Program-made: the position numbers and the translations under genes
Source of the DNA: Chloroflexota bacterium
Lineage (GTDB): Bacteria > Chloroflexota > UBA6077 > JACCZL01
DNA: 64,000 nucleotides
Reading direction: 5' to 3'
NCBI GenBank assembly: GCA_046328125.1
Contig: JAXLXF010000004.1
Coordinates: 118,280-182,279 of the forward strand
Shown here: positions 48,285 to 59,085 of the stretch, piece after piece
Numbering within the stretch: the first letter of the stretch is position 1
Layout of the letters: each line of letters begins with the position of its first letter
The notes under the pieces: generated by a model
What the model saw: the letters and a program-made list of their open reading frames with translations, nothing else
Database searches by the model: none
Told to the model about the DNA's origin: nothing

Positions 48285-49052
48285 ATGACAGATCGCGCGG
48301 CAGCTCCGAAGCGGGTGCTGGTGACTGGCTCGACCGGCGCCATCGGCCAGCCGCTCAGCCGCCACCTCACCGCGCGCGGCCACACCGTCCGAGGCTTCGC
48401 CCGCCGGCCCACGCCGGGCCTCACCGATTATGTCGAGGGCGACCTGACCGATCGCGACGCCGTCCGCCGGGCCGTCGAGGGGAACGAGGTCGTCGTCCAC
48501 CTGGGCGCCTACCCGAATCCGGCCGACTTCATCGACGTGCTGCTCGGACCGAACGTGATCGGGCTATACCACGTCTGCGAGGCCGCCGTGGAGTTTGGCG
48601 TCAAGCGGCTGGTGCTGGCGAGCACCGTCCAGGTCATCTCCGGCCACCCGCGAGACGGTCGCACGGTGAAGGTCGAGGACGGCCCGATGCCAGTCAACCA
48701 CTACGCCCTGACGAAAGTCTGGGCCGAGGCGACCGGCGACATGTACGCACGGGTCCACGGACTCTCGGTCATCAGCGTGCGGATCGGCTGGCTGCCCCGC
48801 AACACCGAGGAGTGCCGGCGGCTGGCCGCCAGCGCGCACGGGAAGGACATCTTCTTCAGCATCGACGACTCGGACCGCTTCTTCGAGCGGTGCGTCGAGT
48901 CCGAGAACCCGCCAGCCGGGAAGTCCGTCATCTTGCAGGCGACGAGCAAGCCGACCGGCACGGCCCGCATGGACATCGAATCAGCGCGTGAGGTGATCGG
49001 CTACGTGCCGAAGGACATCTGGCCGGAGGGCCTGCCGTTCCCGATCGACTGA
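48285..49052 (+). CDS. NAD-dependent epimerase/dehydratase family protein
   Basis: It has the Rossmann motif VLVTGSTGAIG and a YxxxK-like YALTK. Confidence 0.8.
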   Translation: MTDRAAAPKRVLVTGSTGAIGQPLSRHLTARGHTVRGFARRPTPGLTDYVEGDLTDRDAVRRAVEGNEVVVHLGAYPNPADFIDVLLGPNVIGLYHVCEAAVEFGVKRLVLASTVQVISGHPRDGRTVKVEDGPMPVNHYALTKVWAEATGDMYARVHGLSVISVRIGWLPRNTEECRRLAASAHGKDIFFSIDDSDRFFERCVESENPPAGKSVILQATSKPTGTARMDIESAREVIGYVPKDIWPEGLPFPID

Positions 49053-50663
49053 TTACCCGCCGGCGAGGGTGACCCGTACGTCTGCGCCGTCGGGGGGCAA
49101 GGGGCTCTCGTGGATGGCGTCGGCGGGGAGCTGGAGGAGAGCGGCGACGTGCGCGCCGGCCCGCCGGAAGCCGGGCCGGACCTCCACTGCGGTTGCGCCC
49201 CGGGTCAGGCCGGCGTTGCCGACGTTGACGACACGGACGCCCTGGCCGCGCAGGCGGTCGGCGGTCTGGGTGGCGAGGCCGGCCGTGGCGGTGCCGTTCA
49301 GCACCTCCACCGTCGCGGCGGCCGGCGCCAGGAATCCGGCCACCCGTGTGCGGAGGAGCGGAGTCGGGCGCAGCAGGTAGGCGCCCCCTCCTCCCCGAAA
49401 CTCCTCCACCACCCCGAAGTCGAGCGTCAGGCGGTCCGGCTCGGCGGGGCCGGCGCCGAACGCGAGCGCCAGCGTCGCCAGATCCAGCGGGCCGAGATCG
49501 GTCCTGGTGGCCTGCCGAATCGCCTGCGCCACAAAGGGGATGCGCCACCAGTTGACCGGGCGCAGCATGGCGCTGCGCACGGCGACCAGCACCTGCTGCT
49601 GGCGTGCCATCCGTCCGAAGTCGTTGTCCTGGTGGCGCGTCCGCGCGTACCTGAGCGCCATTTCGCCGTCCATGTGCTGGCGCCCGGCCGGGATGTCCAG
49701 CACCATCGTGCCGTAGTCGTCGGTCGGGTAGGCATCGTCGTGGATCGGCCTCGGCACGTCGATCTCGACGCCGCCGGCCGCGTCCACCACGTCGCGGACG
49801 CCCTGGAGGCCGATGGTGAGGTAGTGGTCCACGCCGAGGCCGAGCGTGTCGCCCACCACCCGTTCGGCGGCAGCGGGGCCGCCCAGCACGTACGCCGCGT
49901 TGATCCGCTCGGCGCCGTGGCCGGGGATTTCGACCCAGAGGTCTCTCGGCACCGAGATCAGCCCGACCTGGCTCGGGGAGCGGTCCGCGACGACGGCCAG
50001 CATCGTGTCGGTGCGGCCGACCTCGCCACGCGCGAGCTCGTCAGGGCGGGCGTCGCTGCCGAGCACCAGGAGGGTCACCCGCGCGGGCGCCAGGAGCCCG
50101 GCCACTCCGGCGATGACGACGGCCAGCAGCACCAGCGCCAGCAGCAGCCGGAGCGCCAGCCGCGTGACCCAGCGGCCGGCGTGTCGGCCGGCACGCCGGA
50201 CTGCCCCGGGGCCGGACGGTTGCCGCTCCGGGGTAGGGGCGGGCGCGGGAATCGTGGCGACGGCCGGCGCTGCCCCCGTCCCCGAGCCGCCCGCGCCAGG
50301 CAGGCCGAGCAGGATGGTCTGGAGAAACCCGCCTGATGCGCTGCCATTTCGGTCGTCGCGGCGGTAGGTCAGGTCCGACTTGCCGATCTGGATCACGTCG
50401 CCGTCGTGGAGGGCGGCCGGGCGGCCCGGCGCGACGCTCTGGCCGTTCAGGCGCGTCCCGTTGGTGCTGCCCAGGTCGGCGAGACAGCGCTGGCCGTGGT
50501 GCTCCGCCAGCTCGGCGTGCTGGCCCGAGGCGAACGTGTCCCGCAGGACGATCTGGTTGCCCTCGTCCCGCCCGATCCGCAGCGCCGATTGGCCCAGCTC
50601 GACGCGCGTGGCCCGCTCGCCCGCGTCACGCACCAGCAGCCACTCTCGCCGCTCGCCGCCCAT
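49053..50663 (-). CDS. FHA-domain / TM / LCP (LytR-CpsA-Psr) fusion protein with LytR_C-like tail
   Basis: The FHA domain is LRIGRDEGNQIVL..SGQHAEL...LGSTNGTRLNG. One TM helix follows. The LCP core is LVLGSDAR..RTDTMLAV...ISVPRDLWVEIPGHG..RINAAY...RYARTRHQDNDFGRMARQQ. Confidence 0.85.
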   Translation of the reverse strand: MGGERREWLLVRDAGERATRVELGQSALRIGRDEGNQIVLRDTFASGQHAELAEHHGQRCLADLGSTNGTRLNGQSVAPGRPAALHDGDVIQIGKSDLTYRRDDRNGSASGGFLQTILLGLPGAGGSGTGAAPAVATIPAPAPTPERQPSGPGAVRRAGRHAGRWVTRLALRLLLALVLLAVVIAGVAGLLAPARVTLLVLGSDARPDELARGEVGRTDTMLAVVADRSPSQVGLISVPRDLWVEIPGHGAERINAAYVLGGPAAAERVVGDTLGLGVDHYLTIGLQGVRDVVDAAGGVEIDVPRPIHDDAYPTDDYGTMVLDIPAGRQHMDGEMALRYARTRHQDNDFGRMARQQQVLVAVRSAMLRPVNWWRIPFVAQAIRQATRTDLGPLDLATLALAFGAGPAEPDRLTLDFGVVEEFRGGGGAYLLRPTPLLRTRVAGFLAPAAATVEVLNGTATAGLATQTADRLRGQGVRVVNVGNAGLTRGATAVEVRPGFRRAGAHVAALLQLPADAIHESPLPPDGADVRVTLAGG

Positions 50664-50786
50664 GTCTCTGCCCCGATTCGTGCCGGCTACGCATCGACCG
50701 TGGATGCCGTCTTACCAGAACGGTTGTACCGGACGGCTGGTTCCAGGGCGTCGCGTTTCCGACCCGACGACAGCTACAATGCCGGC

Positions 50787-51497
50787 ATGAACGAGCAGAC
50801 CGGCGCCCAACAATCGTCTCAGGCGACCGTCCGCGTGATCCTGGTCACGGCGACGGCCGGCTTCCGCCACCTGTCGATCCCGACCGTCTTGCGGACCATG
50901 CCGGAGATCGCGCGGGAGGCCGGCAACTTCTCGGTGAAGACGCTCCTGGCCGAGGTGTCGGATCTGGACCGGCTCACCGCCGCCACGCTCGCCGAGCACG
51001 ATCTCTTGTGCCTGATCCACACCAGCGGCGATCTCCCGCTCTCGGACGAGCAGAAGGCGGCGATTCTGGACTTCGTGGCCTCTGGGCACGGCTTCGTCGG
51101 CGTCCACGGCGCGACCACGATCTGCTACGACTGGCTGGAGTACGGCGCGATGCTTGGCGGGCAGTTCAACGGCCACCCGCCGGCTTCGACATTCACCGTC
51201 ACGGTGGAAGACACCGGCCACCCGTCCACCCGACACCTGCCGGCCAGCTTCGCGGTGAAGGACGAGCTGTACACATTTCGGGCGAAGCCTCGGGACACGG
51301 CGCACGTCCTGTTGAGCGCGCCGTCCGGCTCGCTCGACCTGGAGGGCGACCTGCCGCTGGCCTGGACGAAGACGCACGGCGCCGGGCGGGTCTACTACAA
51401 CTCGCTGGGGCATTTCGACGAGGCGTGGGAAGAGCCGTCGTTCCGGGCACAGATCGCGGGTGGCCTGCGTTGGGCGGCTGGCCTGGACGCAGAGTAA
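50787..51497 (+). CDS. ThuA-domain protein
   Basis: Starting at MNEQTG, with VTATAGFRH, GHGFVGVHGA, GHPSTRHLP and YYNSLGH. Confidence 0.8.
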   Translation: MNEQTGAQQSSQATVRVILVTATAGFRHLSIPTVLRTMPEIAREAGNFSVKTLLAEVSDLDRLTAATLAEHDLLCLIHTSGDLPLSDEQKAAILDFVASGHGFVGVHGATTICYDWLEYGAMLGGQFNGHPPASTFTVTVEDTGHPSTRHLPASFAVKDELYTFRAKPRDTAHVLLSAPSGSLDLEGDLPLAWTKTHGAGRVYYNSLGHFDEAWEEPSFRAQIAGGLRWAAGLDAE

Positions 51498-51500
51498 GGG

Positions 51501-53300
51501 TCAGGGGAGGGCGGGAAACGGCGAGGGGCCATCTTCGTCTACGGCGAAGATGTGGTGGCGCTCTCTTGTGCCCTTGACCCGGCGGGCGCCCAGGTCGATC
51601 AGGCGGATGCCCGAGCCGGCGACCAGTCCCCTCACCGTCTCCGAGACGACGACCTCGCCAGCACCGGCCATGCTCATGATCCAGGCCGCGTAGCTGATCG
51701 CGATGCCGATCACGTCGTCGTCCACGGCCTCGTACTCGCCGGCGTGCAGCCCGGCCCGAACCTGTAACCCGAGCGGTCGGACGGCGCTGGCGATCGAGGT
51801 GGCGCAGCGGATCGCGGCGGCCGGGGCGTCGAAGAGGGCCAGGAAGCCGTCGCCCATCGTCTTGACCTCGCGGCCTCGGAAGATGGCGAGCTGCTGACGG
51901 ACTCGGGCGTTGTGGGCGCTGACGACTTCGAGCCAGCGGCGGTCCCCGAGCTCGGCGGTGAGGCGGGTGGAGCCGACGATGTCGGTGAAGAGGACGGTGG
52001 CGATGCGGCGGCTGGCGCCATCGCCGTCACCGGGGGCGGGCTCCGACAGTGGCGGGTCGGCAGGAGAGTGCGTGGAGCTCGGGTCGTCGGAGGGGCGGTC
52101 GGCGGGCTGAAGGCGGAACGGCAAGGGGGACAGAGACGGCGGCTGGCTCGGGAGCGGCAGGGCGCCAGACGAGACAGGCTGGGCCGGGAGAGCTCGCGCG
52201 GTCGAAGGCTGGCTGGGGAGGGCGTTCTCCTGCGCCCAGCGCTGGAACAGCGTGCCGGCCGCCTCGACGGTCCGCGCGGCACGGTCCCAGTGCACCACGC
52301 CGGTGTGGGCCAGCACGTCGAGGGCGCGCTTGCCCTGGCCGGGGAAGCGGGCGATGAGCTCGCCCTCTGGCAGTGAGATGCTGGCGCTGACCTCGGCGTA
52401 GATCGTCTGAGCCGGCGCCTCGAAGCTCTGCCACCAGCTGCTGAACATGGTGGCGTGCTCGCGGAGGAAGCGCTGCTCGGCCTCGGCGAGGGTCTCCGCC
52501 CAGCGCTCGACCTCGCGCTCGCAGAGACGCTGCATCAGGAACTGGATCAGGCAGGGTTGGCCGCCGCTGACCGCGAAGACGCGCTCGACGGCCGGGTCGG
52601 GCCAGGGGTAGTGGGATGGCTCGCGCATCAGGCGGGCGGTCTCCGACAGGCTGAACGGCTCCAGCTCGTGCCAGGCCAGGATGTTGCCGAGCGGCGATCC
52701 AGCGTCCTGGGCGATGCGGTAGATCTCGTGGGCGCCGCAGAAGACGGCGCTGACGCAGCGCGAGAGCTCGCCCATGTTGTTGAGCAGCATCCGCCAGTGC
52801 GCCAGGAACCCGCCGCCCCAATCGGTTGCGTGGATGCGCTCGATCTCGTCGAAGAGGAAGACGAGCTGGAGCCGGCCGTGCCGCCTGGATGCGTCCAGGA
52901 GGGCGCGGAGGGCATCGGCGAAGGCCGGGCCGTCGGTGGTGGCGGTTGACGTGAGGGCGTCGAGGGCGCCGGCCGGGTCGTCGCCGAGGCCGAGCGCGCG
53001 GGCAGCCTGCGCGACTCTTCGTCCGAGCAGGCGGTAGGCGTCCTCCGACGACATCGTGTACAGCTCGGCCACGTCCACGAAGACTGGCAGCACCAGCAGC
53101 CCGCCGTCCGCGCCGATCTGCCCGAGGGTGCGCTCGAGCCAGCGCAGCAGGGTGGTCTTGCCCATCCGGCGCCCGCCGGCCACCGCGAAACGGTCGCCCG
53201 CGAGCAGCCGCTCGACCAGCGACTCGGCGGCCTCGCGGCGCCCGTAGAAGAGGTCGGGATCGACCAGGCTCCAGCGGTACGGGTTCGCGTCAGTGCGCAC
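51501..53300 (-). CDS. Arch_ATPase/STAND-like NTPase fused via a Pro-rich linker to a C-terminal class III nucleotidyl cyclase domain
   Basis: FYGRREAAESLVERLL..VAGGRRMGKTTLL (Walker A), LVFLFDEIERI (Walker B) and a wHTH-like LDVLAHTGVVHWD are present. A P/S-rich linker follows. The cyclase core is IATVLFTDIVGST...VKTMGDGFLALF...RAGLHAGE. The gene ends 3 nt from the convergent ThuA gene. Confidence 0.8.
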   Translation of the reverse strand: MRTDANPYRWSLVDPDLFYGRREAAESLVERLLAGDRFAVAGGRRMGKTTLLRWLERTLGQIGADGGLLVLPVFVDVAELYTMSSEDAYRLLGRRVAQAARALGLGDDPAGALDALTSTATTDGPAFADALRALLDASRRHGRLQLVFLFDEIERIHATDWGGGFLAHWRMLLNNMGELSRCVSAVFCGAHEIYRIAQDAGSPLGNILAWHELEPFSLSETARLMREPSHYPWPDPAVERVFAVSGGQPCLIQFLMQRLCEREVERWAETLAEAEQRFLREHATMFSSWWQSFEAPAQTIYAEVSASISLPEGELIARFPGQGKRALDVLAHTGVVHWDRAARTVEAAGTLFQRWAQENALPSQPSTARALPAQPVSSGALPLPSQPPSLSPLPFRLQPADRPSDDPSSTHSPADPPLSEPAPGDGDGASRRIATVLFTDIVGSTRLTAELGDRRWLEVVSAHNARVRQQLAIFRGREVKTMGDGFLALFDAPAAAIRCATSIASAVRPLGLQVRAGLHAGEYEAVDDDVIGIAISYAAWIMSMAGAGEVVVSETVRGLVAGSGIRLIDLGARRVKGTRERHHIFAVDEDGPSPFPALP

Positions 53301-53303
53301 CGG

Positions 53304-55403
53304 TCACTCCACCTGGCCGAGGCGGAAGCGGCGCAGCCAGCGGTCCAGCAGGCGGATCTTGATGCGGTACTCGTGGTCCACGTACTCGACGATCTGGTAG
53401 CCCAGGAGGTGGCGCAGGGCGCGGTCGATCGGCTGGTCGGAGAGGGTGGCGAGGCCGGCTGGCGTCACGACGCCGTCCGCGATGAACGGCAGCAGCTCGT
53501 TCTCCTCGGGGAAGTGGGTCTCCAGGCGGTAGAGGATCTCCTCGAAGATGGCGCCCTTGTCGCGGACGAACGTTTCGAGGGAGTCCTCCACGATCTGGCG
53601 GGTGATCCGAAGCGGGCGGTAGGCGTACCCTCTGACGATGTGCCCGCACAGCTGGCGGGTGATGTACGGGTGGCCGCCCGCCTCGCGGTAGATGTGGGCC
53701 AGGCTGTCCTCGTCGAACTGGACGCCCATGCCGCGCCCCAGCTGGGCCACCATCTCGCCGCAGACGTCCTCGTCCAGCGGCGGCAAAAAGACGTCCTGGT
53801 AGAACTGGAAGACCGGGTTCTCACGAGAGCCCCAGTTCGGAGTCTCGCTGACGAGCGGGTTGGCGGCGGTGACGACGCTGACGACGCGGCCCCTGGTGCG
53901 CTGCCCGACGCCTCTCAGGTAGGCGAAGAAGTCGGCGTACCCCTTGAAGCCGGGGTTCGCCTCGGAGATCGGCAGCATGTACTCCAGCTCGTCGATGGTG
54001 ATGACGATCTTGGTGTACGGCAGGGTCGGGTCGGCGTCGAGGGCGTCCAGCAGGCGGGCGAGGTCTTCGTCGAAGCGCAGGGCGTTGTGGTGGGTCTGAC
54101 GGATCGCGGTGTAGGTGGGGACCGCGCCGAGCTGCATCGTCTGGGCGGCAAGCTCGGGATCGAGCAGCTGGCGCTCGACCACCCGCTGATACAGCCGCCG
54201 CCCGATGGCCCAGTACAAATAGGCGCAGTCCTGCTGGCCGGTCCCCCTGATCTCCTGGAGATCGACGTACACCACCAGGTCCGAGGGGCGGGTCTCGCGG
54301 AGCTGGTACAAGAGCGAGGTCTTGCCGACTTTCCGGAGGCCGTAGATGCCGGTGTGGCGGCCATCGTCGATATTGGCGCGGATCTGGCGCAGCTCCAATT
54401 CTCGGCCGTAGAAGTGCCGGCCGGAGACCGGGAAGCGGTCGTCGTACAGGTTCCTTCGAGACAGCCAGCGATCTAACACCTGCTGGAGGTTGCCGCCGGT
54501 CAGGGTCTCGTGGTCCAGTGGCACGATCGCCTCGTGACTGTCGCCGATGAAGCGGTACAGCGCGTTGTGCCAGCGGGTCGCGTCTGGCAGGACCACGAAA
54601 GCCACGTCGCGGTTCAGCTCGGGGTACGGTGGATGAGCCAGCGCGTCCGGCACCTGGAGCAGGGTGGCCCAGTCGATGACATCCCGCAAGTAGCAGCGGA
54701 CGAGTACGTTGCCGCCGAGGCCGTAGCCGTCGGTGTACGCTGGCTGGGCGGTGCGGACGGTCAGGTCGGCGTACTCCTCAGTCAGCTTCTCGACGCGGAC
54801 GTCAAATCCCGCGCTTCGGAAGCAGCCGACGGTCTCGCGGCCAAGCTTCGAGGTGGTGACGAACCAGAGGGTGCGGTACCGTGGGTCGTCGCGGACCTCG
54901 GGCATCCCGAGCTGCTCGGCCTTGCGGGCGTATCGTGCGGCGGCGGCGAACTCCTTCTCGTCGCCGATATCGACAAGCAGGCTGGCGAGCGCCCAGTGCA
55001 GGCTGGCGGCGCCCGGGTTGCGGGTGAGACCTCTTCTGAGGGCGGCGGCGGCCTGCTCGTGGCGGCCCCGCAGCACCAGCAGTGAGGCGAGGCTGACGTA
55101 CATGGCTGGCGAGTCTGGGAAGCGTTTGAGGCCGTTCTGGAGGACGGCGATGGCGCGCTCGGTGCTGCCGGCCCGCTCGGAGACGTCGGCATAGGCGAGG
55201 TACAGATCGACGTGGGGCGCCCAGCCAATCGCCTCTTCGAGGAGGTCACGGGCGGGGCCCAGCTCGTTGCGGGCCTGGGCGGCTTCGGCCTGGCGGAACA
55301 GCCTCTCGGCCTTGGGAGACATCGGGGAGCTGAGGACGGCAGCGGGCGCCGCGCGGGCGGCCTGGGCAGGCCGCTTCGCCTGACGGGTGTTGCGTCGCTG
55401 CAT
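53304..55403 (-). CDS. TPR / restriction-endonuclease-like / Arch_ATPase (STAND-like) NTPase / C-terminal wHTH protein
   Basis: TPR-like repeats span aa ~45-185. The middle domain FRSAGFDVRVEKLTEEYADLTVRT..GNVLVRCYLRD is Mrr-like. FYGRELELRQIRANI..GIYGLRKVGKTSLL is Walker A and IVITIDELEYM is Walker B. The C-terminal LGYQIVEYVDHEYRIKIRLLDRWL is DUF234-like. ATG at 55403 has GGAG 7 nt upstream, and the track ORF starts at GTG 55448. Its stop lies 3 nt before the next gene's start. Confidence 0.75.
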   Translation of the reverse strand: MQRRNTRQAKRPAQAARAAPAAVLSSPMSPKAERLFRQAEAAQARNELGPARDLLEEAIGWAPHVDLYLAYADVSERAGSTERAIAVLQNGLKRFPDSPAMYVSLASLLVLRGRHEQAAAALRRGLTRNPGAASLHWALASLLVDIGDEKEFAAAARYARKAEQLGMPEVRDDPRYRTLWFVTTSKLGRETVGCFRSAGFDVRVEKLTEEYADLTVRTAQPAYTDGYGLGGNVLVRCYLRDVIDWATLLQVPDALAHPPYPELNRDVAFVVLPDATRWHNALYRFIGDSHEAIVPLDHETLTGGNLQQVLDRWLSRRNLYDDRFPVSGRHFYGRELELRQIRANIDDGRHTGIYGLRKVGKTSLLYQLRETRPSDLVVYVDLQEIRGTGQQDCAYLYWAIGRRLYQRVVERQLLDPELAAQTMQLGAVPTYTAIRQTHHNALRFDEDLARLLDALDADPTLPYTKIVITIDELEYMLPISEANPGFKGYADFFAYLRGVGQRTRGRVVSVVTAANPLVSETPNWGSRENPVFQFYQDVFLPPLDEDVCGEMVAQLGRGMGVQFDEDSLAHIYREAGGHPYITRQLCGHIVRGYAYRPLRITRQIVEDSLETFVRDKGAIFEEILYRLETHFPEENELLPFIADGVVTPAGLATLSDQPIDRALRHLLGYQIVEYVDHEYRIKIRLLDRWLRRFRLGQVE

Positions 55404-55706
55404 GGCCAGCTCCGAGTAGATGAATGCGAGCGCGGCGGTGGCTACCACGAGTGTACCCGGATTTCGCGGTCACACGAGGTACACGGGTACTCCGGCGTGG
55501 AACAAACGTGCCCGGCGTGGGGCAAACCCACGGTTCGACGGGGGCTGACCTGGAGTGGATCGGGCTGGTTTTGGCTTTGTTCCGGCCGGATCGATAGCTC
55601 GGGAGCTGGCGTGGCGACTGGCATGGGCGACTCCGACAGGGTGCTTGGTTGGAGTTACCCGTGGGAGCGCCTGTCGTGACAGCCAGATCGCTGATGGTGG
55701 CTGATG

Positions 55707-55754
55707 GAGAGAAGCCCCACCCCCTGACCCTCCCAATCGCAATTGAGATGGGGA
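55707..55754. repeat. diverged partial copy of repeat family R1
   Basis: gagaagccccaccccctgaccctcccaatcgcaattgagatgggga aligns by eye at roughly 75 percent with the reverse complement of 10741-10793. Confidence 0.5.
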
Positions 55755-56035
55755 TCGCGTTGCGAGGTGCAGTGCCTCGCACTCGGTCACCCATCAGCGA
55801 TGAGGAATTGGCAGTCATTTTGACGCTCGCCCTGAGCTCGACTTTGTCCATTTCGCCAGCACGCGAGTCTCGGCTCGCTCTAGAGCACCGGTAGGCCCAT
55901 CTGCGTTGCGCCGGGGTTTCTTCGCGGTCCTGTTTTCGGCCGACATCCAAAAACTCCGGCGCAAATTCGTGCCCTAGATAGGGATCGGTCTTGCGCAACC
56001 TCCAGGAACCACCCCAAATGGGCAAAGTCGAGCTA

Positions 56036-57179
56036 ATACCAAACCCGCGTAGCCTCGTCGCATAATTCTAGCAGCAGGCTGACCCGAGGATGTCATGGCA
56101 CGGCGAGGGCGGAGACTGGCGATCGAGTGGGCGGCGGGGGACGACGCGGCGAGCCTGTACGGGCGGTATCGACGTGAGCGGCGGGCGGACGTGCGGCCAC
56201 GGTTGCATGCGCTGTGGCTGGTGCGGAGCGGGCACCGCGCGCGAGGCGGCTGAGGTCCTCGGCGTGGACGAGCGATCGGTGCAGCGCTGGGCTGGGTGGT
56301 ATCGAGCCGGCGGACTGACACCGATCGAGGGACGGCATGCTGGCAGCCAGGGGGCGCCGTCGTTCTTGACGTCCGAGCAGAAGACGGAACTGGGGGACGA
56401 GGTGGCGACCGGGCGGTTCCGGACGGCGGCGGAGATCCGGCGCTGGGTCACCGAACGCTGGGGGGTGAGCTACACGGAGGGTGGGATGTATGCGCTGCTG
56501 CATCGGCTGCAGTGCACGCCGAAGGTGCCGCGCCCCATCCACGAGAAGACCGACCAGATGGCGCAGGTGCGGTGGAAAAAGGGGGGCTCGCGACGGCTCT
56601 CCAGGCAATCGGCCTGATGCGGGCCAGCCGCCTCGGCTTCGCCGACGAGATGCGCCTCGGGCTGCGCGGGACCAGTCGGCGCGCCTGGGGGCGCCGAGGC
56701 GTCACGGTCCGCCAGCGGCTCCAACTCACGTACGACTGGTGGTACCTGTTCGTCGCCGTCGACGGTCAGGCCGGCACCATCTCGTGGACCTGGCTCGACT
56801 CGATGAAGGCGACCGATCTCGTGCCACTCTTGGAGGCGTTGCGGACCGACGCCCCGCTCGACGCGCTCGTCTGGGACGGCGCCTCCAGCCACCGCGACGA
56901 CGCCGTCCGGGCGGTCGGCGTCCCACTGGTTCAGTTGCCCCCCTATAGCCCGGAGCTGAACCCGGCCGAGCGCCTGCTGGAGGAGATCCGCCGTCACACC
57001 GAAGGCCAGGTCTACGCTACCCTGGCCGACAAGGTCGCCGCCGTCAACGCCTTCCTGGACGACCTGGACGCCGACCCGGCCCGGGTCCGCAGCCTCTGTG
57101 GCTGGGACTGGATCAACGCCGCCATCGCCACCCTCCCAGCTCCCCTGGAAAAGGCGGCATAGCTATGCGGGATTGGTAT
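56036..57179 (+). mobile_element. IS630-family insertion sequence (1144 bp) flanked by a TA duplication
   Basis: The terminal inverted repeats are ataccaaacccgcgtag (56036-56052) and ctatgcgggattggtat (57163-57179). TA lies at 56034-56035 and at 57180-57181. A DDE_3 transposase is encoded inside. Confidence 0.85.
56095..57162 (+). pseudogene. IS630-family transposase, disrupted by an extra frameshift in the HTH region
   Basis: Segment 1 (ATG 56095) encodes MARRGRRLAIEWAAGDDAASLYGRYRRERRADVRPRLHALWLVRSG and stops at 56251. The HTH continues in another frame: TAREAAEVLGVDERSVQRWAGWY...KVPRPIHEK. After the A5G6 run (56576-56586) the DDE part (FADEMRLGL..VAVDG..WDGASSH..PYSPELNPAE) is back in the first frame. 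The second shift fits a programmed -1 frameshift. The first does not. Confidence 0.75.
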
Positions 57180-57572: not shown

Positions 57573-57730
57573 GTGGACGGGCAGGTACCTCAACGTCTCC
57601 TGTTGGTCGATGATGAGCCAATGATCGCAGCGACGCCGACGCTGCTTTTGGAGCTCGCGGGGTTTGGCGTTCTCCACATCCGCGACGGCGACGAGGCAAT
57701 GCAGCGGATTGCCGAGAGCACATCCGACCG
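57573..57730 (+). pseudogene. response-regulator receiver domain fragment (first ~50 aa only)
   Basis: GTG at 57573 opens ..RLLLVDDEPMIAATPTLLLELAGFGVLHIRDGDEAMQRIAES, which is the beta1-alpha1-beta2-alpha2 part of a REC domain. Similarity is then lost. The phospho-acceptor Asp region is absent. Confidence 0.5.
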
Positions 57731-57783
57731 GACTCTCTGCATCGGGATCAAGCCGGCAACACAGTGGGGAGGACAGTTTCGAC

Positions 57784-58563
57784 ATGACGCCACGGATGCT
57801 TCGGCCCTTGGTCGCCCTACTCGTCGTTTTGACGGCTGGCTGTACGCCGGGAGCCGGAGTCGCCCCGAGTACGACGTCCACGCCCGACCTCTCAGCTCAG
57901 GCTACGAGCACGGCGATTGCAGCCGAGCGCGATCGTCCGACTATCCAAGTCGCCGCCGCGACGCCAGCCGCTAGCCCATTGGCACCCGCTACCATTGCCG
58001 CTCCCCCGACCACGCCCATCGTCGCCAGCGCGTCCCCAGCCGCTAGCCCCTCAGTACCCGTTGCCGCTGCCGCTCCCCCGCGCCCGAATCAAATCCTGGC
58101 CGGTGATTTTGGTAGAGCAGCACCCGTTGCCGCTGCCGCTCCCCCGCGCACGCCCATCGTCGTCGCAGCGACGTCGGTTCCACCGCAAAGCCCCACTCCA
58201 GTCCCGTCGCCAGACCCGAGGCTGACCGGCGCGGGAACAACTGGGGAGTGGATCGCGAGCACCGATTTTGGCAACTTTGGCTTCACCGTGAACGCTGAAC
58301 AGACTGGTATCGTGAAGTTCACCGTTGAGCCGTCGCAGAAGCCGTGTCGTCTGATAACCACTCCGGGAGGGGTAACCCTGATGCCTGAAGAACCATCGCC
58401 CATCGTGAATAACCGGTTCAACCTGCAAACAGGTGTGTTCGACATCAGGGTCAGTTTCGACGGCGAATTCGAACCGACGCGCACGTCGGCGTCAGGAGCT
58501 TGGCGCGTTACGGGAGAGGGCGGGTGCTCGGTTTCAGGCACGTGGACAGCTCACCCACGGTGA
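57784..58563 (+). CDS. hypothetical lipoprotein with Ala/Pro-rich repeat linker
   Basis: MTPRMLRPLVALLVVLTAGC contains a lipobox. The linker has a duplicated 26-nt segment (58058-58083 and 58133-58158) encoding PVAAAAPPR. I do not recognise the C-terminal ~110-aa beta-rich domain. Confidence 0.6.
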   Translation: MTPRMLRPLVALLVVLTAGCTPGAGVAPSTTSTPDLSAQATSTAIAAERDRPTIQVAAATPAASPLAPATIAAPPTTPIVASASPAASPSVPVAAAAPPRPNQILAGDFGRAAPVAAAAPPRTPIVVAATSVPPQSPTPVPSPDPRLTGAGTTGEWIASTDFGNFGFTVNAEQTGIVKFTVEPSQKPCRLITTPGGVTLMPEEPSPIVNNRFNLQTGVFDIRVSFDGEFEPTRTSASGAWRVTGEGGCSVSGTWTAHPR

Positions 58564-58690
58564 TGTCACCAGCAGGCTTGACGAATCCCTGTGGTCCTAG
58601 CAATCGATCTCGGCGGAGCGTGGCAGGCAAACGATCGAGCTGTGCTGTCCGTTGCATGTCCCACAGATAGGTGTGAGGGTCACGCAGCAA
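58508..58690 (-). pseudogene. HepT (DUF86) toxin remnant
   Basis: The ATG at 58690 overlaps the MntA 3' end by 11 nt, which is typical TA coupling. MLRDPHTYLWDMQRTAQL matches the HepT N-terminus. The sequence then diverges, with no RxxxxH motif and only 60 codons. The convergent lipoprotein gene ends inside it. Confidence 0.5.
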
Positions 58691-58988
58691 AGAGAGGCAC
58701 CTTTGTCGCGTCGATGGCCTTGCGGAGATACGGATTGACGACCGTGGAGTCCACCACGAGGTCGATGGGCTGGTGGAACAGGTCTTCGAGCGCCGCGAGT
58801 AGGCCTAAGTACGCCCTTGCAAACGCCCCGGGCGGCAGCTCATCGAACTCGACCAGGAAGTCGAGGTCGCTCTCGCCTGGACGGTCGGTGCCTCTGGCCG
58901 CCGAGCCGAACAGGTCGAGCCGCCGCACGTGAAACGCGCGGCACAACTGCTCGACGTCGTGCTGGTGGCGGACGAGATCGGGACTCAC
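58680..58988 (-). CDS. MntA-type nucleotidyltransferase (type VII TA antitoxin)
   Basis: LDLFGSAARGTDRPGESDLDFLVEF is the GSxxxGx..DxD motif. GTG at 58988 lies 4 nt after GGAGGGAGG. The track ORF starts 5 codons earlier. Confidence 0.75.
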   Translation of the reverse strand: MSPDLVRHQHDVEQLCRAFHVRRLDLFGSAARGTDRPGESDLDFLVEFDELPPGAFARAYLGLLAALEDLFHQPIDLVVDSTVVNPYLRKAIDATKVPLFAA

Positions 58989-59085
58989 GCGGCCTCCCTC
59001 CACGAGTGTATCGCATAGGATCGGGTGCCCAACGGGTCTCTGCGTCTGCTTGCCTGGGCCGTGGGTTGAATCCCACGGCGTGCGG

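Follow-up and report, generated by a model that had tools for sequence, protein, structure and literature searches.

What could two neighbouring genes achieve together if each encodes a nucleoside triphosphatase (NTPase) of the signal transduction ATPases with numerous domains (STAND) type, the first with TPR repeats towards its N-terminus and the second with a class III cyclase domain at its C-terminus? Here, we analysed such a locus from a Chloroflexota bacterium (GenBank assembly GCA_046328125.1), located in a stretch of 64,000 nucleotides (contig JAXLXF010000004.1, positions 118,280 to 182,279 of the forward strand); this whole stretch is called the window below, and coordinates without a contig name refer to it. 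The upstream gene, A, and the downstream gene, B, turned out to belong to a widespread family of paired STAND genes with a constant NTPase core and variable regions at the start of A and at the end of B. With moderate confidence we propose that the two proteins form a two-subunit, NLR-like STAND module of the conflict or immunity type, in which A acts as the sensor and B as the executor.

The gene pair and its two NTPase modules

Gene A (53304 to 55448) is an open reading frame (ORF) for 714 residues from a GTG start, with M16 at 55403, the start used by the database gene call P0001, as an alternative. Gene B (51501 to 53300) is an ORF for 599 residues and likewise starts with GTG. Both genes, and all of their features given below, lie on the minus strand, and they are only 3 nucleotides apart: at the junction (53298 to 53306), the TGA stop of A (53304-53306), the spacer 'ccg' and the GTG start of B (53298-53300) follow one another directly, with a Shine-Dalgarno-like run, GGTGGAG, just upstream of the GTG. 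A sequence-only reading of this DNA had described the two co-oriented genes, with this spacing, as a translationally coupled pair of STAND-like NTPases, and the arrangement can be read as such in the sequence.

The NTPase module of B occupies residues 1-365 (52206 to 53300) and is matched by two Pfam families, of which AAA_22 passes its cut-off and AAA_35 does not; both matches span residues 34-275. It contains a Walker A motif, GGRRMGKTT (53151-53177), a Walker B motif, FLFDEI (52842-52859), a GGQP motif at residue 246 and a winged helix at residues 312-359. Among 57 B proteins of the family, G47 is invariant, and G42, G43, K48 and D151 are conserved in at least 90%. An AlphaFold2 model of residues 1-375 (predicted local distance difference test score, pLDDT, of 91) displays a helical bundle and an H-E-E-H winged helix. 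The closest structures found with Foldseek are SSO1545 (2fna; template modelling (TM) scores of 0.60/0.64) and PAB2304 (2qen), both archaeal ATPase_2 proteins; further matches are ORC/Cdc6, the plant NLR resistosomes NRC4, ZAR1 and RPP1, and CED-4.

Protein A carries its NTPase module at residues 341-714 (53307 to 54428), where the Pfam families AAA_16, ATPase_2, nSTAND1 and nSTAND6 match weakly, the first two over residues 346-514 and below the Pfam cut-offs. The Walker A motif, GLRKVGKTS (54315-54341), is invariant in homologues, as is the DE of the Walker B motif, ITIDEL (53985-54002), and a GGHP motif of the GxP type lies at residue 591. Aligned with hhalign, the profiles of the B and A modules match with a probability of 99.1 (E 6e-19, 331 columns). 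Common to both are the motifs FYGR-GxxxxGKT, DE and GG(H/Q)P as well as a C-terminal winged helix, and at the level of these profiles the two modules are identified as paralogues. The pair thereby shows the features of the STAND superfamily, namely P-loop Walker motifs, a GxP helical domain with a winged helix, and fusion to sensor or effector domains. The label 'STAND-like' is thus justified by the profile paralogy together with the AlphaFold2 and Foldseek matches to ATPase_2 proteins, NLR resistosomes and CED-4. Two further claims made before are borne out, that the Walker A and B motifs are intact in both proteins and that a winged-helix-like region lies behind each ATPase; the winged helix is seen in the model of B and was deduced for A from the profile alignment with the B module. 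Ahead of its NTPase module, A indeed has N-terminal TPR repeats as had been stated (residues 45-185; 54894 to 55316), which match Pfam TPR_14 (E 3e-10), TPR_16 and TPR_19 above the cut-offs and give profile matches to TPR/HAT proteins in the PDB.

Conserved pairing and variable slots across the family

Is the adjacency of A and B more than a coincidence of one genome? One genome per species was scanned, which yielded 80 non-redundant loci, and a locus was counted as paired when a B homologue started between -450 and +150 nucleotides from the stop of A. By this measure, 52 of the 80 loci have a B homologue directly behind A, and the paired loci span Chloroflexota, Cyanobacteriota, Acidobacteriota, Verrucomicrobiota, Pseudomonadota, Spirochaetia, Deinococcus, Myxococcota and Planctomycetota. 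A candidate in-frame start of B is present between -35 and +35 nucleotides from the stop of A in all 27 loci of the full-length type, and tight adjacency is also found in cyanobacterial, Kouleothrix, Accumulibacter and soil contigs. For archaeal metagenome-assembled genomes (MAGs), the presence of homologues of A and of B was recorded. The locus is thus more than a chance juxtaposition; the coupled pair of the sequence-only reading is real and conserved, and its question of whether both genes co-occur and stay adjacent across genomes is answered in the affirmative for many phyla.

Homologues of A fall into a tight group (82-85% identity, 672-711 residues) from soil metagenomes and one Chloroflexota MAG, and a broad group (30-50% identity, about 770-960 residues) from cyanobacteria, Kouleothrix and Anaerolineae, Accumulibacter and archaeal MAGs. 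Most members of the broad group add an excisionase-type HTH_17 and a cold-shock domain (CSD) before the TPRs, and those at 40-50% identity, with these two extra domains, reach about 920 residues. On the side of B, a clade of 16 homologues (55-83% BLASTP identity) has the same NTPase-plus-cyclase layout, and this cyclase version is confined to one small soil Chloroflexota clade. The other B homologues measure about 510-590 residues and resemble B in its N-terminal 60% only. In a metagenomic protein of 464 residues (P0081), an NTPase module like that of B (68% identity over 43% of B) is joined to the C-terminal helicase domain UvrD_C_2 in place of a cyclase; this protein could represent a further variant of effector or partner, or else a chimera produced by gene calling. 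On plasmids, only distant and uninformative single-ATPase relatives were found, in Klebsiella, Ralstonia and Deinococcus. One of them, on the Klebsiella pneumoniae plasmid pF13_1 (L089, 5539-7542), is a distant single 'AAA-like domain' relative of the NTPase module of A; such Klebsiella relatives on conjugative IncF plasmids have VapBC and a tyrosine recombinase as neighbours and seemingly no partner of the B type.

The C-termini of the B proteins vary widely. Pfam domains found there among the 57 B proteins are TIR_2 (5), TIR (4), HEPN_Swt1 (4), the CAP12-PCTIR TIR (2), DUF4062 (2), SLFN_AlbA_2 (1), the calcineurin-like Metallophos (1) and Guanylate_cyc (2, in the window's B and in that of a related contig, L008); elsewhere in the family, an OLD-type TOPRIM or a pPIWI-associated restriction endonuclease (REase) occurs at this end. 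PADLOC, which was run on the window's proteins, 20 relatives and 128 neighbour ORFs from 27 loci, recognised among the C-termini a ThsB-like TIR (E 4e-60) and the N-terminal domain of PDC-S60. At the other end of the pair, the N-termini of A comprise HTH_17+CSD+TPR, WD40 or Reg_prop/Sortilin propellers, and between the two ends the ATPase_2 and AAA_35 matches recur across the family. Judged from these comparisons, the C-terminus of B is best described as a swappable effector slot and the N-terminus of A as a variable sensor region. Since a constant NTPase core is combined with a variable sensor on A and a variable slot for toxic enzymes on B, the family has the architecture of conflict and immune systems. 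Comparative genomics, with TIR, HEPN, TOPRIM, REase, Schlafen and calcineurin-like domains in the slot of B and a changing N-terminus of A, hence favours the defence-type module that the sequence-only reading had suggested.

How might such a pair work? From the gene pairing, the paralogy, the intact NTPase motifs, the variable slots and the residue pattern of the cyclase domain described below, we infer hetero-oligomerisation, a trigger, an enzymatic output and a role in defence. Protein A would sense a ligand via its TPRs and its middle domain and, in relatives, also via the nucleic-acid-binding CSD. Ligand-bound A would then trigger a nucleotide-dependent co-oligomerisation with B, in the manner of sensor/helper NLR pairs or of NAIP/NLRC4, and this co-assembly would bring the C-terminal domains of B together. 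In the cyclase clade, clustering of the LipJ-type domains would switch on ATP binding or turnover, in the form of cyclic AMP (cAMP) synthesis or ATP sequestration, because class III cyclase domains work only as head-to-tail dimers.

The cyclase domain, the neighbourhood and competing explanations

The earlier statement that the downstream protein adds a Pro-rich linker and a class III cyclase domain proved accurate. The linker covers residues 366-427 of B (52020 to 52205) and is the longest in the clade, about 25-45 residues longer than in most clade relatives. It is followed by a class III cyclase-homology domain at residues 428-586 (51543 to 52019), which is matched by Pfam Guanylate_cyc (residues 434-581, E 4e-10) and, with 164 bits, by the cyclase part of the NCBIfam model LipJ. 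Its nearest solved relatives are Rv1900c/LipJ (PDB 1ybt, E 6e-39) and Ma1120 (4wp9, E 6e-23). The nearest relatives in the databases are LipJ-like hydrolase-cyclases at 55-60% identity, which suggests a fairly recent capture of the domain. Both metal-binding aspartates, D440 and D484, are conserved in 17/17 clade members. The adenine-specifying pair is retained as well, with D529 invariant in the clade and K480 replaced only by Asn in one of the 16 homologues, and R515 is conserved too. These residues argue for nucleotide and metal binding that is retained under purifying selection. Since the domain is conserved and its binding site is complete, it is probably functional, and the pair K480/D529 predicts specificity for adenine.

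Several points weigh against a two-subunit conflict module of this kind, and they come from the cyclase domain itself, from the chromosomal surroundings and from database searches. At the position of the transition-state Arg, B has W540 (codon 51681-51683), and all 17 clade members have Trp there, as opposed to Arg in 75/75 of the nearest cyclases outside the clade and also in Rv1900c and Ma1120. The residue that corresponds to the transition-state Asn is S536 in B. Ser is found here in 13 of the 17 clade members (the window's B and 12 homologues); four members from deeper in the clade have Asn, and cyclases outside it have H, N or A. According to PMC4215837, citing Yan 1997, this Asn-Arg pair stabilises the transition state and is essential in mammalian adenylate cyclase. 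The uniform Trp against an equally uniform Arg makes the catalytic competence of B, and efficient cyclase activity in particular, appear doubtful, and the exchange predicts weak or altered catalysis. The 'second-messenger generator' of the sequence-only reading thus keeps its class III cyclase domain, while its output of a cyclic nucleoside monophosphate (cNMP) has become uncertain across the clade.

Could the domain be a pseudo-cyclase? It would then make no cNMP and act as a nucleotide-binding or dimerisation module, with a regulatory or dominant-negative output or as an ATP sink, or it would be a 'C1-like' half-site that needs a canonical subunit to provide Asn and Arg. The substitutions at both transition-state positions speak for this, and so do the retained metal aspartates and Lys/Asp pair, that is, a preserved binding site. 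Catalytically inactive cNMP cyclase domains have already been noted in effector positions of NTP-dependent conflict systems, where they were suggested to be nucleotide binders or dominant-negative regulators (Kaur et al. 2020, PMC7159879). In three related soil contigs, a canonical cyclase-TPR gene stands divergent from A (L008, 7683-9479; L091, 3545-5341; L093, 3370-5136; all on the minus strand). Its product of 588-598 residues has an N-terminal class III cyclase domain with the metal aspartates, Lys/Asp and an intact Asn-Arg pair, and might in principle be a source of the Arg missing from B. However, these three contexts are orthologous and not independent, and neither the window nor the related contig L092 has such a neighbour. 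Moreover, the Asn position is naturally variable in the subfamily (H, N, A), and Ma1120 is active with Ala there (PMC4215837), so this subfamily tolerates non-canonical transition-state residues. We give the pseudo-cyclase some weight as a tentative alternative, though on balance we doubt it.

The chromosomal surroundings lead to a second alternative. Collinearity with the related contig L008 extends from 48301 to 55325, in three blocks of 72-77% nucleotide identity, and the genes held in common are those for an NmrA-type epimerase, an FHA-LytR protein and ThuA, followed by B and A. The part downstream of the pair (48285 to 51497; NmrA-type epimerase, FHA+LytR_cpsA_psr, ThuA) reaches 70-78% protein identity with L008, and the pair is therefore chromosomally stable on its downstream side. 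The cyclase clade as a whole is also devoid of the HTH and CSD that its relatives have. Stable surroundings and the loss of these domains would fit a domestication for ordinary signalling, in which a STAND-controlled adenylate cyclase feeds a general cAMP network, like MalT/AfsR-type regulators or the mycobacterial multidomain cyclases, and serves stress responses or physiology and not the repulsion of invaders. Such a role would suit the position shared with a relative at 77% nucleotide identity next to the housekeeping-type ThuA, FHA-LytR and NmrA genes, the kinship of the cyclase domain with the 'physiological' cyclases of the LipJ type, and the strong conservation of the clade (64% mean column identity). 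Neither a toxic effector nor a cNMP receptor is linked to the pair in the window or in the relatives' contigs that were scanned, which is again in keeping with it. But why should a housekeeping module have paralogous pairs that carry TIR, HEPN, nuclease or Schlafen domains in the very same slot? This is hard to reconcile with domestication. Collinearity with L008 ends at about 55325, within the 5' end of A, and upstream synteny breaks at an IS630 element; other clade members reside in different contexts, one on the P0004 contig with an integrase and an NYN gene nearby and one on L092; and a lost catalytic Arg would be odd for a dedicated source of cAMP. Domestication thus seems unlikely to us. 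The 'accessory context next to IS630' claimed for the locus is correct for the upstream side, where the element lies at 56090-57162, and not for the downstream side, which is syntenic with the relative at 77% nucleotide identity.

The database searches complete the points on this side of the balance. PADLOC v2 holds no model for the core proteins: among the window's proteins and the 20 relatives it returned matches to effector domains only, and an assignment of A/B to a known defence system was rejected on this ground. The matches among the window's proteins were weak (PDC-S27, 4e-6; PycC, 2.5e-3). A search of 50,697 phage records gave no homologue, and the literature yielded no experimental paper on any member of the paired-STAND family. 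Among the 128 neighbour ORFs from 27 loci, defence genes do occur, namely REase/methyltransferase genes, a DRT reverse transcriptase, AriA and PDC-S39, but the signal is modest in a comparison that has no control set. A location in defence islands, as considered in the sequence-only reading, is therefore backed by a few restriction-modification, DRT, AriA and PDC neighbours and not beyond this modest signal. Its observation that no cNMP-binding effector lies nearby holds: no cNMP-binding gene was detected among the 10 window ORFs scanned with Pfam or in the relatives' contigs.

The latter result bears on a third alternative, in which a cNMP made by B activates a receptor-effector encoded elsewhere in the genome, similar to Pycsar. 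The class III cyclase domain, the weak PycC matches of the profile search (E 2.5e-3) and the conflict-system context of the family are compatible with it. Nevertheless, we consider it very unlikely, as the similarity to PycC is marginal and the domain is of the LipJ type (164 bits), no cNMP-binding TIR or transmembrane effector appears in any clade context scanned, the same slot in sister pairs holds a terminal effector (TIR, HEPN, nuclease) and not a signal relay, and the catalytic Arg is lost.

Between the TPRs and the NTPase module, A has an alpha/beta domain specific to the family (residues 186-340; 54429 to 54893; AlphaFold2 model with a pLDDT of 89), which had been taken for a Mrr/PD-(D/E)xK-like domain of about 130 residues. 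It has no match in Pfam, NCBIfam or PADLOC, and Foldseek found nothing significant for its model in the PDB, where the best E-value is 0.06 and the weak matches include RPB5, MspJI and Mus81-Eme1. Borderline matches in BFVD are RPB5 (E 1e-3, TMq 0.45) and a phage 'restriction endonuclease' (E 0.026, TMq 0.51). All these weak structural matches point to REase-like folds, and the guess of such a fold may be right. Homologues align with D228, Y242, R251 and C252 as invariant residues; a (D/E)xK constellation is not among them, and the third strand reads LVRCY, with neither an acidic residue nor Lys. Among 1.84 billion representatives searched with phmmer, the domain occurs in only 33 clusters, in proteins of 600-1140 residues and each time directly before the ATPase; it is a constant, family-specific part of A. 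The identification as a Mrr/PD-(D/E)xK nuclease was consequently dropped. That this domain degrades DNA after STAND activation, in a logic akin to Avs, deserves hardly any credence: the resemblance to the N-terminal domain of RPB5, MspJI, Mus81-Eme1 and the phage restriction endonuclease is weak (TM 0.3-0.5) with no Foldseek match below E 1e-3, sequence families and catalytic motif fail to match, and the domain belongs to the constant core of A, whereas the variable effector slot sits on B.

The remaining upstream neighbourhood is given for context. A stretch of 640 bp without a credible ORF (55449-56089) separates A from the IS630-family element (56090 to 57162, plus strand), which is present in two overlapping frames, an HTH_33/HTH_29 ORF (56090-56617) and a DDE_3 ORF (56296-57162); the split frames reflect either a programmed frameshift or a broken copy. 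Further on, a Pro/Ala-rich ORF of 299 residues (57664-58563, plus strand) has a lipoprotein-like N-terminus (…LLVVLTAGC) and no Pfam match. An NTP_transf_2 ORF resembling MNT antitoxins (58680-59003, minus strand) is followed by an ORF of 60 residues (58508-58690, minus strand), whose start (MLRDPHTYLWDMQRT...) looks by eye like a truncated DUF86/HepT toxin, and which may be the rest of a decayed HEPN-MNT pair. A glycosyltransferase gene lies upstream of A as well. Remnants of HTH or CSD upstream of A were not detected by tblastn, and a tRNA scan of the window found none.

A bolder version of the two-subunit conflict module can be formulated, which as a whole we regard as quite improbable. The pair would be a prokaryotic counterpart of sensor/helper NLR pairs, with A nucleating a hetero-oligomer with B; its output would be nucleotide-based, non-lethal and unique to the clade; and the cyclase domain of B would be a 'C1-like' half-site that is active, or sequesters ATP, only in the complex or with a canonical cyclase partner. 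Should a paired STAND module with a nucleotide output be true, it would be the first STAND-gated immune output based on cAMP or ATP depletion, and a natural effector swap from killing to signalling. Even if its role were ordinary signalling and not defence, the family would represent a new type of cyclase under STAND regulation. Pairs of sensing and executing STAND proteins are central to NLR immunity in plants and animals, and in prokaryotes they are predicted only. With its wide distribution, two intact NTPases and a cleanly swappable slot, the family offers a tractable model for hetero-oligomeric STAND signalling and its evolution. The cyclase clade adds two questions: can a nucleotide signal or an ATP sink, instead of a killing enzyme, be the output of a STAND switch, and what is the role of a class III cyclase without its catalytic arginine?

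Comparison with known systems

The division of labour between a sensing and an executing STAND protein proposed here resembles that of sensor/helper NLR pairs, as in plant paired NLRs and the NRC network, and of NAIP/NLRC4. Sensing and executing NLRs of such pairs co-oligomerise. The homology, however, does not go specifically beyond the STAND fold, and hetero-oligomerisation of A and B is only proposed. By structure, the module of B is closest to SSO1545 (2fna) and PAB2304 (2qen), which belong to the MNS-clade STAND proteins (ATPase_2, PF01637; TM about 0.6), but these are single-domain archaeal proteins of unknown function that have neither sensor nor effector domains nor a partner gene. The MNS clade also includes the 'Npun2340/2341' family, whose name presumably refers to an adjacent gene pair in Nostoc.

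Proteins of the mycobacterial Rv0386 type are single chains with an N-terminal cyclase, a central ATPase of the AAA_16 type, TPRs and a C-terminal LuxR HTH. They use the same vocabulary as A and B, namely a class III cyclase, an AAA_16-type ATPase and TPRs. Yet, they have no partner STAND protein, whereas here the second of two STAND proteins bears the cyclase at its C-terminus, and Pfam finds no LuxR/GerE domain in A or B. Avs (AVAST) proteins likewise combine a STAND NTPase with TPR-type sensors and toxic effectors and are activated by oligomerisation (PMC13581612). They differ in that a single chain begins with the effector and ends with the sensor, while our pair has its sensor at the N-terminus of A and its effector at the C-terminus of B, a separate paralogous STAND protein, and the Avs models in PADLOC have no match among the window's proteins. 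Pycsar has a class III-type cyclase in a defence context in common with our pair. Its cyclases adjoin cNMP-binding TIR or transmembrane effectors (10.64898/2026.08.12.744502), but no cNMP-binding effector lies beside A/B, and the PycC match is marginal (15 bits) compared to that of LipJ. The verdict of the sequence-only reading that the locus fits neither Avs nor Pycsar nor the mycobacterial cyclase-ATPase-LuxR proteins therefore stands, given the split genes, the missing Avs match, a cyclase outside the PycC family and the missing LuxR/GerE domain.

For the cyclase domain alone, Rv1900c/LipJ and Ma1120 are the closest solved relatives. The metal aspartates and the Arg at position 515 are common to them and B, and the Asn position is non-canonical in both. 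The catalytic Arg is kept there and is Trp in B, and LipJ is fused to an alpha/beta-hydrolase and not to a STAND module. Cyclases linked to NTPases have been predicted in immunity before: the Pucsar preprint (10.64898/2026.08.12.744502) describes STAND-fused cNMP cyclases as the predicted and uncharacterised 'Immune clade 1', and NTP-dependent conflict systems such as the vWA-MoxR ternary systems have cNMP cyclases in their effector positions (PMC7159879). They resemble our pair in that the cNMP cyclase of a predicted immune system is either part of the same chain as an NTPase or under its control, and some versions are catalytically inactive. These are, however, fusions to NACHT or AP-ATPase modules, or systems with vWA/VMAP proteins, and none is described as belonging to an operon of paired MNS-like STAND proteins.

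Such operons, consisting of two genes that both code for STAND NTPases, were predicted under the name nSTAND2 by Kaur et al. 2021 (eLife, PMC8195603, Fig. 6C). They are mobile and have MNS-like STAND cores, the downstream protein bears a variable C-terminal effector (HEPN, GT4), and a hetero-oligomer is predicted. The same layout of adjacent STAND genes with a variable C-terminal effector on the downstream protein is found in A/B. There are differences, too: the effector-bearing nSTAND2 protein has eroded NTP-binding motifs, in contrast to the intact ones of both A and B; nSTAND2 proteins have a winged helix-turn-helix and TPRs before the effector and are mostly proteobacterial; and the part of their table considered here lists neither a cyclase effector nor a CSD/TPR sensor architecture. 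The nSTAND2 family PF20702 does not match the window's B at E<=0.1 and is passed by only 2 of the 57 B-family members, and hhalign aligns the B profile to the nSTAND2 sequence WP_094198012 with an E-value of 0.067. Membership of B in nSTAND2 was rejected on account of its intact Walker motifs and these two results. That a module of this kind had 'not been described' was too strong a claim, with two-STAND operons in PMC8195603 and STAND-fused cyclases in the 2026 preprint. The nSTAND2 two-gene operon is the closest described system and follows the same logic; earlier computational work has predicted two-STAND operons as well as cyclases linked to STAND proteins, and the cyclase-bearing pair without the catalytic Arg is a variant on these.

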